Sequence record: OR532847.1
DNA: 44,819 nt
Origin: Klebsiella phage RCIP0053
Direction: 5' to 3' (one strand)
The translations under genes and the position numbers were made by a program. This document shows, piece after piece, positions 14,924 to 15,473 of this stretch. Every line of letters begins with the position of its first letter. Position 1 is the first letter of the stretch. Below the pieces are notes generated by a model. The model was not told where the DNA came from, searched no databases, and was given only the letters and a program-made list of their open reading frames with translations.

Positions 14924-15076
14924 ATAATTCTCATTAACTCATTAGCTCAGTCTAGTACACTAGACTAGACTAGAGCGTAACATCTAACTAGTACAATTTT
15001 AGTTGAGAATTATTCTCATTAATCCTCAGTCTAGCATACTAGACTAGACCGGAGCGTACTAGTTGGCTAGTACAAC
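14924..15076. repeat. two tandem ~75-bp A/T-rich units, each containing a GTCTAGTACACTAGAC-type hairpin
   Basis: Direct repeat AATTATTCTCATTAA...CAGTCTAG(T/C)A(C/T)ACTAGACTAGAC...CTAGTACAA seen twice. Confidence 0.6.
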
Positions 15077-15147
15077 AGGCGTTCCTACGTGAAATCTGAG
15101 AAAGCTTGCGGGCAATTGTCCGTCAGAATTTAAAATTTTCTGAAAAT

Positions 15148-15172
15148 AATTAGGCGCTACAATAGAGGGAGC
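15148..15172 (+). promoter_or_regulatory. phage RNAP promoter (AATTAGGCGCTACAATAGAGGGAG)
   Basis: Consensus match. Located downstream of the RNAP gene, like T7 phi1.1A/B. Confidence 0.7.
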
Positions 15173-15175
15173 CCA

Positions 15176-15375
15176 GTAAGCTATAATAGTAAGCTATAGT
15201 AAGCTATAGTAAGCTATAGTAAGCTATAGTAAGCTATAGTAAGCTATAGTAAGCTATAGTAAGCTATAGTAAGCTATAGTAAGCTATAGTAAGCTATAGT
15301 AAGCTATAGTAAGCTATAGTAAGCTATAGTAAGCTATAGTAAGCTATAGTAAGCTATAGTAAGCTATAGTAAGCC
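15176..15375. repeat. tandem array of ~19 copies of the 10-bp unit AAGCTATAGT
   Basis: Perfect head-to-tail 10-bp repeats beginning 4 nt after the promoter. Confidence 0.9.
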
Positions 15376-15433
15376 CTGTAAGTTTCTCCTTATTCTCTCT
15401 TTATAGAGAGAATATAATATAGTAAGCCTTATT

Positions 15434-15473
15434 AGCCCTCTTGAGTGCAGTAGCTCAGGAGGGCTTTATTTTG
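15434..15473 (+). terminator. rho-independent terminator (12-bp stem AGCCCTCTTGAG/CTCAGGAGGGCT + TTATTTTG)
   Basis: Hairpin plus T tract. Likely early (host RNAP) terminator. Confidence 0.6.

Follow-up and report, generated by a model that had tools for sequence, protein, structure and literature searches.

The primary origin of replication of bacteriophage T7 is the region of the two promoters phi1.1A and phi1.1B, with secondary origins at phiOR and phi6.5, and each of these origins needs a T7 promoter (PMC8373140). Between T7 genes 1 and 1.1, phi1.1A (5848) is followed by a hairpin-forming leader and phi1.1B (5923) by an AT-rich stretch, ahead of gene 1.1. The leader after phi1.1A is what we take to be the R1.1 RNase III site. 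To our knowledge, origins have been mapped in very few T7-like phages besides T7. Here we describe the corresponding slot in Klebsiella phage RCIP0053, a T7-like phage of the genus Gajwadongvirus (Autographiviridae), whose sequence record (OR532847.1; 44,819 nucleotides, referred to as ‘the window’) contains a tandem array of 10-nt units directly downstream of a promoter that serves no open reading frame (ORF). Comparison with related phages indicates that the array is a recent, unstable expansion within an old, conserved, gene-less promoter-leader module. As to what the module does, our tentative preference is for a T7-type transcription-activated origin or leader module with a slippage-expanded hairpin, in which the origin function would follow from position and composition. 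No description of the module was found in the literature on the genus, on T7-like non-coding RNAs or on origins.

The array comprises 18 perfect tandem copies of AAGCTATAGT on the plus strand (15191–15370, in the register used by an earlier reading of the DNA that was made from the letters alone, hereafter the sequence-only reading). That reading had described a perfect array of 19 units; the perfect tandem array is real, with one unit fewer. Tandem Repeats Finder reports it at 15186–15374 with a period of 10, 18.9 copies, 100% matches and a score of 378. The count of 18 is the one assembled in the record, and a perfect array of 190 bp is difficult for short-read assembly; metagenome contig L213 stops inside the array. 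The perfect units are preceded by a 13-nt variant first unit, AAGCTATAATAGT (15178–15190, plus strand), that is found in every phage of the expanded clade, and are followed directly on the 3′ side by two degenerate units, AAGCCCTGT and AAGTTTCTCC. The window has 46 copies of the heptamer GTAAGCT where 11.4 ± 3.0 are expected, and 19 of the 46 are inside the array. A coding function was ruled out, as direct reading finds stop codons in all six frames, and a CRISPR-like array was ruled out by the lack of spacers. The variant unit GCTATAATAGTAAG matches the GCTACAATAGAGGG of the promoter at 10 of 14 positions; the idea that the units are degenerate copies of the promoter's initiation region was set aside, as the units lack the upstream specificity region.

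The promoter in question, phiA (TTAGGCGCTACAATAG, 15150–15165, plus strand), is of the SP6 type. It is one of nine plus-strand sites with at most one mismatch to TTAGGNNCTNCAATAG in a scan of the window, and with up to two mismatches there are 16 matches against 1.8 expected; this consensus match points to a promoter for the phage's own RNA polymerase, in line with the promoter that the sequence-only reading had placed at 15148–15172. The +1 of phiA is presumably G15165, by analogy with the SP6 and T7 promoters, and the first array unit therefore begins at +14 and not, as had been stated, four nucleotides after the +1. Transcripts from phiA would end at a strong intrinsic terminator (15434–15473, plus strand), a 13-pair stem at 15434–15465 followed by TTATTTTG, which bears out the hairpin and T-tract terminator of the sequence-only reading. 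Its claim that phiA serves no ORF also holds: there is no ORF of at least 30 amino acids on either strand in 14842–15534, and the next ORF, at 15535, has its own promoter. This second phage promoter, phiB (TTAGGCACTCCAATAG, 15496–15511, plus strand), serves ORF 15535–15687 (50 amino acids), ORF 15672–15830 and the primase-helicase gene (15830–17842). The other promoters of the window have short, ordinary leaders. The module thus runs from a phage promoter through a predicted 5′ hairpin of degenerate AAGCU-type units, a predicted small pyrimidine/purine hairpin and (in this genus) a terminator to a second promoter.

The likeness to the T7 primary origin region is one of layout. In both phages the RNA polymerase gene precedes the slot and a tiny ORF follows it, and the slot itself has two phage promoters in tandem, the first of which leads straight into a hairpin-forming leader; in both, promoter-proximal DNA is the least stable of the genome, although in the unexpanded relative ECBP5 the module does not rank first; and a second such element after the terminase gene here resembles phiOR. 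The two differ in that T7 has neither a tandem 10-mer array nor a terminator between the two promoters, and in that the AT-rich stretch of T7 is 3′ of the second promoter, whereas here it is 3′ of the first. There is no sequence similarity between the T7 region and the module, which is a putative origin. The 50-amino-acid ORF after phiB shows no similarity to T7 gp1.1, and the T7 correspondence is therefore positional only. Within the origin AT-rich stretch of T7 (5932–6004) there are four or five CTTAAG or CTTTAAG motifs, 11–17 nt apart, a loose parallel to the TAAG-containing units seen here.

Perfect units at the array site number 18 in the window, 10 in Klebsiella phage Roth32, 9 in Klebsiella phage RCIP0089, 5 in each of the metagenome contigs L012 and L212, at least 6 in L213, 2 in Klebsiella phage vB_Kp_Z1 (Z1) and in L219, 1 in phages of the ECBP5 type and 0 in those of the MR4 type. 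Phages that are 95–98% identical carry 2, 5, 9 or 10 perfect units between near-identical flanks. In the rest of the genus (PP99, MR4, ECBP5 and JSF38) and in Edwardsiella phages the same slot holds five to eight degenerate AAGCU-type units of 9–11 nt, as it does in Pantoea phages (Nufs112 and contig L013), Klebsiella phages 6939 and KL01, Ralstonia phage Reminis, Erwinia phage VL73 and Aeromonas phage Tola; AAGCTAAGT, AAGTTAAGT and AAGCTGTAGT are examples from the genus, the Edwardsiella phages, Nufs112 and L013. The degenerate units are always found 3′ of a gene-less promoter with that phage's own specificity. In Aeromonas phage AerP220 the slot is occupied by a purine-rich leader hairpin, and clear AAGCU units are absent. 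Alignment revealed that whole units are gained or lost as indels of about 10 nt. It follows that a single Klebsiella-phage sublineage has amplified one unit of an old degenerate repeat, and we infer that the expansion arose by replication slippage. The exact 30-nt array was found in only one IMG/VR contig, which belongs to the same clade. A scan of viral and bacterial genomes for GTAAGCT with gaps gave no host counterpart of the array, but was too loose to inform, returning chiefly period-12 coding repeats and unrelated arrays.

The module extends well beyond the phages that carry the array. In 6939, KL01, Reminis, VL73, Tola and AerP220 the primase-helicase is 65–75% identical and the layout from the early terminator to the primase-helicase gene is alike, comprising a gene-less promoter, a repeat-built or purine-rich hairpin leader and a second promoter, without a terminator. 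The terminator at 15434–15473 is near-invariant in Gajwadongvirus and the Edwardsiella phages; it is lacking in the Pantoea, 6939/KL01/Reminis, VL73, Tola and AerP220 lineages. A 145-nt unexpanded version of the module is near-identical in many independent metagenome contigs. This distribution bears on the proposal that the array is a neutral minisatellite, which would have grown by slippage in a hairpin-prone, AT-rich leader, with low duplex stability as a by-product. The perfect identity of the 18 units suggests that the expansion is very recent; copy number is free to vary in well-growing isolates, including the therapeutic Z1 with its 2 units; a second element elsewhere in the genome also differs by one unit between the window and Z1; and the arrays break assemblies. 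For the expansion alone a neutral origin is plausible. That the whole gene-less unit is functionless, a cassette that has lost or never had its gene, is unlikely: the module is kept at the same place in at least six lineages with different promoter specificities, it is near-invariant in many metagenome samples, and some 300 bp of useless DNA is rarely kept in compact T7-like genomes. The sequence-only reading had suggested checking the copy number of the 10-mer among isolates and had counted a dispensable or variable array against itself; for the array as such, variation from 0–1 to 18 units is what was found. Z1, a characterised therapeutic isolate, grows well with 2 units, and the long array is therefore not needed for viability.

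Iterons such as those of lambda ori, P1, R6K and pSC101 are units of about 17–22 bp that are spaced, fixed in number and bound by an initiator encoded nearby. The sequence-only reading had called the array iteron-like, and the 10-mers could accordingly be imagined as tandem sites for a replication initiator, or for another DNA-binding protein, at an origin. In common with iteron origins, the locus has tandem direct repeats that adjoin an AT-rich region in non-coding DNA at an origin-like position, and the terminal non-coding region at 7480–9040 is likewise rich in GTAAGCT-like and CTAGGTAGCT motifs. The units differ from iterons in being contiguous 10-mers of hypervariable number (0–1 to 18 perfect copies in near-identical phages), and the ancestral units in relatives are degenerate with a spacing of 9–11 nt. 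No initiator-like gene adjoins the array, and replication of the T7 type needs no initiator (PMC8373140). An iteron origin was rejected, with no Rep- or O-type initiator gene among the neighbours and neither repeat number nor spacing conserved; we regard protein-binding iterons of any kind as highly improbable. By way of comparison, three unrelated IMG/VR phage contigs (L031, L045 and L053) have a layout that is classically iteron-like, with one intergenic region in which four or five different short tandem arrays (CCAGTTCCAA, GGTGGAATAA, TGGAGCAATG, AAGCTATACA three times and AAGCTGTAGT three times) stand side by side; the AAGCT core that they have in common with the present units would be due to chance or convergence.

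The position of the module was related to the ends of the genome. The window record is circularly permuted, and the two ends of PP99's record fall at about 7800 and 8118 when mapped onto it; the physical ends are probably near 7.8–8.1 kb, inside a 1.5-kb non-coding stretch. The array module, which follows the RNA polymerase block and precedes the primase-helicase gene, is therefore about 7.2 kb (16%) from the inferred left end. The module is at 20% in Nufs112, whose genome ends were determined experimentally (PMC9915841), and phi1.1A/B is at 14.7% in T7. The slot is thus, as the sequence-only reading had noted, that of the T7 primary origin.

Nearest-neighbour duplex stability was computed along whole genomes, with T7 as a positive control. 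The four least stable windows of 60–100 bp in T7 start 10–20 bp 3′ of phiOL, phi1.1B, phi6.5 and phiOR; since three of these minima follow phi1.1B, phi6.5 and phiOR, the metric recovers the known origins. In the stretch analysed here, the array region is the global stability minimum at all sizes from 60 to 300 bp (z 3.5–4.6, 70% AT). It is followed by the element behind the terminase gene, which is the second least stable region at 200 and 300 bp and also at 60 bp among distinct regions, and then, at 60 bp, by the region of the promoter at 23667. The module is the least stable region in Nufs112 too, where the post-terminase promoter takes third place. Position and composition make a real case for a T7-type origin, if one that is uneven across the family. 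If the module is such an origin, the phage RNA polymerase would start at phiA and run into the DNA that melts most easily in the whole genome, and this transcription would open the duplex and/or provide the phage DNA polymerase and primase-helicase with a primer, in the manner of T7 origins. The repeats would then act as AT-rich unwinding or hairpin material and not as protein-binding sites, and the number of units would not be critical. The pentamer TTGTC, which fits the T7-type motif (G/T)2GTC, is found once near the module, at 15470–15474, although the motif is that of T7 and may not be that of the present primase. The T7-type motif is given as (G/T)2GTC in a published account (PMC12839067).

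Several observations weigh against an origin. The sequence-only reading had put the primary origin here, and the T7-like slot, the gene-less promoter and the least stable DNA all stand in its favour; in ECBP5, however, whose 145-nt module is unexpanded, the region of the post-terminase promoter is the least stable, and the module comes only about fifth at 200 bp and falls outside the first six at 60 and 100 bp. It is thus mainly to the expansion that the module owes its first rank in the window. The nascent RNA is predicted to fold back strongly on itself, and there is a strong terminator 270 nt downstream; both disfavour a persistent RNA–DNA hybrid or primer. A plain T7-type origin needs neither a conserved hairpin architecture nor a recurring AAGCU motif, and the same type of leader is an ordinary 5′ untranslated region (UTR) at 2723–2863. 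GC and AT skew in the window are monotonic and give no origin signal, as expected since the phage is transcribed from one strand. The literature yielded no replication data for any member of the group.

The element at 2723–2863 (plus strand) is a paralogous promoter-leader, with its promoter directly 3′ of the terminase large-subunit gene. Its leader is built from the same units in 4.5 copies, one of them a perfect AAGCTATAGT at 2781, and forms the 5′ UTR of ORF 2864–3412, a tail-related gene; it is this leader that differs by one unit between the window and Z1. A short AAGCU/AGCUU version of the hairpin is found in the leader of the capsid-gene promoter at 32402.

The predicted structure of the phiA transcript invites a different account of the module. 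Its 5′ end is predicted to form one long hairpin (15167–15390, plus strand) in which the 5′ GGGAG pairs with a CUCC 3′ of the array and the array itself becomes a stack of 8-bp helices with AA/AA internal loops between them. In RNA the unit core GCUAUAGU is self-complementary over 8 bp, two of which are G–U, and because the unit is self-pairing any copy number retains a single long 5′ hairpin. This is followed by a second, small hairpin (UAUUCUCUCU/AGAGAGAAUA, 15391–15414, plus strand) in its 5′ arm and purine-rich in its 3′ arm. The whole transcript has a predicted folding energy of −136.9 kcal/mol (z = −10.6 against shuffled sequences), and the first hairpin folds better in the sense than in the antisense direction (−101.6 versus −59.0 kcal/mol); the sense fold is also lower, by about 8–12 kcal/mol, in Z1, MR4, ECBP5, 6939 and Reminis. 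In all homologues the predicted order from the +1 is a long 5′ hairpin, a small hairpin and then a terminator or palindrome. The long hairpin is closed by GGGAG/CUCC in homologues and by GAAG/CUUC in the Edwardsiella phages, and in ECBP5 and MR4 it is predicted to have about 20 pairs with internal loops. T7 late transcripts, for example that of the phi10 leader, begin with a 5′-terminal stem-loop. The phiA transcript resembles leaders of this type in starting with GGGAG, in pairing it with a downstream CUCC and in placing the hairpin at its very 5′ end, and differs from them in that the hairpin is 60–225 nt long and repeat-built, and that one of its two copies precedes a terminator and not a gene.

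It is possible, if somewhat doubtful, that the module acts as RNA, with phiA and the terminator giving an abundant, structured non-coding RNA, some 310 nt long in this phage and some 145 nt in most relatives. The 5′ hairpin would then be a processing or binding site of the RNase III type, with cleavage putative, or a stabiliser of the 5′ end, or a decoy acting in trans, the sequence-only reading having likewise raised an RNA-based decoy or primer-generating element; the expansion would merely lengthen a double-stranded rod, and in T7 the R1.1 hairpin, between phi1.1A and phi1.1B, would be the corresponding element. This account is the main rival to a transcription-activated origin and is compatible with an origin role of the same DNA. 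It draws on the bounding of the unit by a promoter and a strong terminator, on the common order of elements in every homologue's predicted fold, on the near-identity of the 145-nt version across many metagenome contigs, on the paralogous leader at 2723 being an mRNA 5′ UTR, and on the hairpin that directly follows phi1.1A in T7. The arms of the second hairpin differ by lineage with their complementarity kept (TCTCTC/GAGAGA, CCCTC/GAGGG, CTCTTC/GAAGAG and CTATCCC/GGGATAG), 23 of the 109 predicted pairs are G–U, and the sense strand folds far better than the antisense. RNase III accepts stems of some two helical turns, among them short helices that are stacked coaxially and interrupted by internal loops (PMC1540722), and the predicted fold, though only the predicted fold, has an irregular stem of about two or more helical turns with internal loops.

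Other features speak against a function as RNA. Formal covariation is weak, with 1 compensatory pair among 32 in an alignment of 10 close sequences, a result that is explained by the close set being too similar; distant homologues align poorly in the repeat region. The palindromes would fold equally well as DNA, and the asymmetry between sense and antisense disappears in VL73, Tola and AerP220. In the five lineages that lack the terminator the RNA would be merely a long leader. Rfam 15 gave no match in the region 14400–16000 (best 26 bits against a gathering score of 49, all E-values at least 2) and nothing at gathering thresholds across the whole window. No target or partner can be named, and the occurrence of 2–18 copies in viable phages argues against a function that is sensitive to length.

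A transcribed non-coding tandem repeat whose copy number expands has been described in Pectobacterium phage PhiTE, where the pseudo-ToxI repeats mimic a toxin–antitoxin system of type III with ToxI units of 36 nt that are processed by ToxN (PMC3475682). The present array is alike in being a presumably transcribed, expanding phage repeat and differs in its unit of 10 nt, with no similarity in sequence or length. An antitoxin-like repeat RNA of type III was rejected on the grounds of unit length (10 nt against about 34–40 nt), the lack of a ToxI-family Rfam match and the lack of a toxin gene. A bolder proposal, which we think quite improbable, is that in Klebsiella phages the module gives an abundant, self-complementary, quasi-double-stranded RNA rod of adjustable length (about 25 to 95 bp) that acts in trans as a decoy or sponge, for which reason its copy number would be under diversifying selection. 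Were this so, the rod could be a sponge for RNase III, for another host factor that binds double-stranded RNA or for an RNA-sensing defence system, and would represent counter-defence at the RNA level that evolves by repeat expansion.

Whichever account is preferred, the module is a conserved, previously undescribed, gene-less promoter-leader common to at least six Autographiviridae lineages, in which a hairpin has grown from 0–1 to 18 units in phages that remain viable. Short-read assemblies break at the array, which would be a useful strain marker, and the series of 0–18 units provides a natural allelic series for how AT-rich or hairpin length may tune origin firing or RNA function. For the transcription-activated origin, the comparison with T7 supplies a calibrated test: a phage promoter followed directly by the genome's least stable DNA marks a candidate origin. 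By this test the candidates, in a group that includes therapeutic Klebsiella phages, are phiA (15.2 kb) and the promoters at 2.7 kb, after the terminase gene, and at 23.7 kb.

The DNA upstream of phiA has features of its own. The RNA polymerase gene block is closed by an early-type intrinsic terminator (14852–14885, plus strand), a hairpin AGGCAGCTACTTAAGTGGCTGCCT and T-run whose 10-pair stem (14852–14875) has 6 G–C pairs and is followed by TTTCTTTTAT; it is kept in all relatives. Beyond it is an imperfect tandem duplication (14918–14996 and 15003–15075, plus strand), in which sub-blocks are 80–90% identical. The sequence-only reading had described two tandem hairpin-containing units of about 75 bp; the duplication and its palindromes are confirmed, the copies being imperfect and spaced by 79–85 bp. 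Each copy contains a Fur-box-like palindrome, a 16-bp palindrome of the GTCTAGTACACTAGAC type and part of a TTGTACTAG...CTAGTACAA palindrome, and the relatives PP99, L012, L219 and L213 have a single copy. Directly upstream of phiA is a conserved block of about 55 bp, CTACGTGAAATCTGAGAAAG...CAGAATTTAAA (15085–15140, plus strand). PP99, L012 and L013, a contig of the Pantoea type, share its first 20 nt exactly, and the block is recognisable in Nufs112, VL73 and 6939. It includes a AAATCTGA/TCAGATTT inverted repeat and is better conserved than most of the intergenic region.

Between the terminator and phiB is a 16-bp palindrome, GTCTAGTACACTAGAC (15473–15488). Palindromes of this type occupy eight 16-bp sites in the window (3717, 8594, 11232, 14950, 15029, 15473, 18308 and 23520), with 17 strand-specific matches against 0.41 expected; two are directly upstream of phage promoters. 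Equivalent places in other lineages have different 16-mers that are palindromic all the same, such as GTCTCCTATAAGAGAC and GTATAGCATACTATAC, and Pantoea phages have a non-palindromic 16-mer in inverted orientation on both sides of the module. The Fur-box assignments are based on a 7-1-7 model, TGATAATNATTATCA. The palindromes at 14919–14933 and 15004–15018 fit it with 1 and 2 mismatches, respectively, and the whole window has 4 matches where 0.18 would be expected. A sigma-70-like promoter, TTGATA-16-AATAAT (14901–14928), overlaps the first of the two. The equivalent site is a perfect Fur box in VL73 and L213 and also occurs in 6939, KL01, Reminis and Nufs112, which suggests a putative host Fur-controlled promoter directly after the early terminator.

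The RNA polymerase gene (11814–14447; PF00940, E 9e-92) is 95–96% identical to those of Roth32, RCIP0089 and Z1 and 92–94% identical to those of PP99, ECBP5, MR4 and JSF38. Two small ORFs and the early-type terminator separate it from the array module. The genes of the neighbourhood are those for RNA polymerase, four small ORFs without a Pfam match and a Toprim/DnaB-type primase-helicase; three of the four small ORFs match PHROG families of unknown function and one matches no PHROG. In the metagenome loci L214–L223 the set of small genes in the interval from the RNA polymerase gene to the early terminator varies by contig, with a DUF3850 protein in one and a weak match to Acb1 (anti-CBASS) in another, which suggests a hotspot for accessory or anti-defence genes directly upstream of the array module. 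In the non-coding stretch at 7480–9040, CTAGGTAGCT and GTAAGCT motifs are abundant on both strands, alongside several short tandem repeats, including a 23-bp repeat at 8322–8392, and a consensus-like sigma-70 promoter near 8643–8671. A tRNA-like gene (23585–23662, plus strand) is located between the phage promoters at 23565 and 23667; it has an enlarged anticodon-loop region of 13 nt and was missed by ARAGORN and by the whole-window Rfam scan, whilst scanning the region alone gave an Rfam tRNA match of 35.3 bits (gathering score 29, E 4.6e-6).

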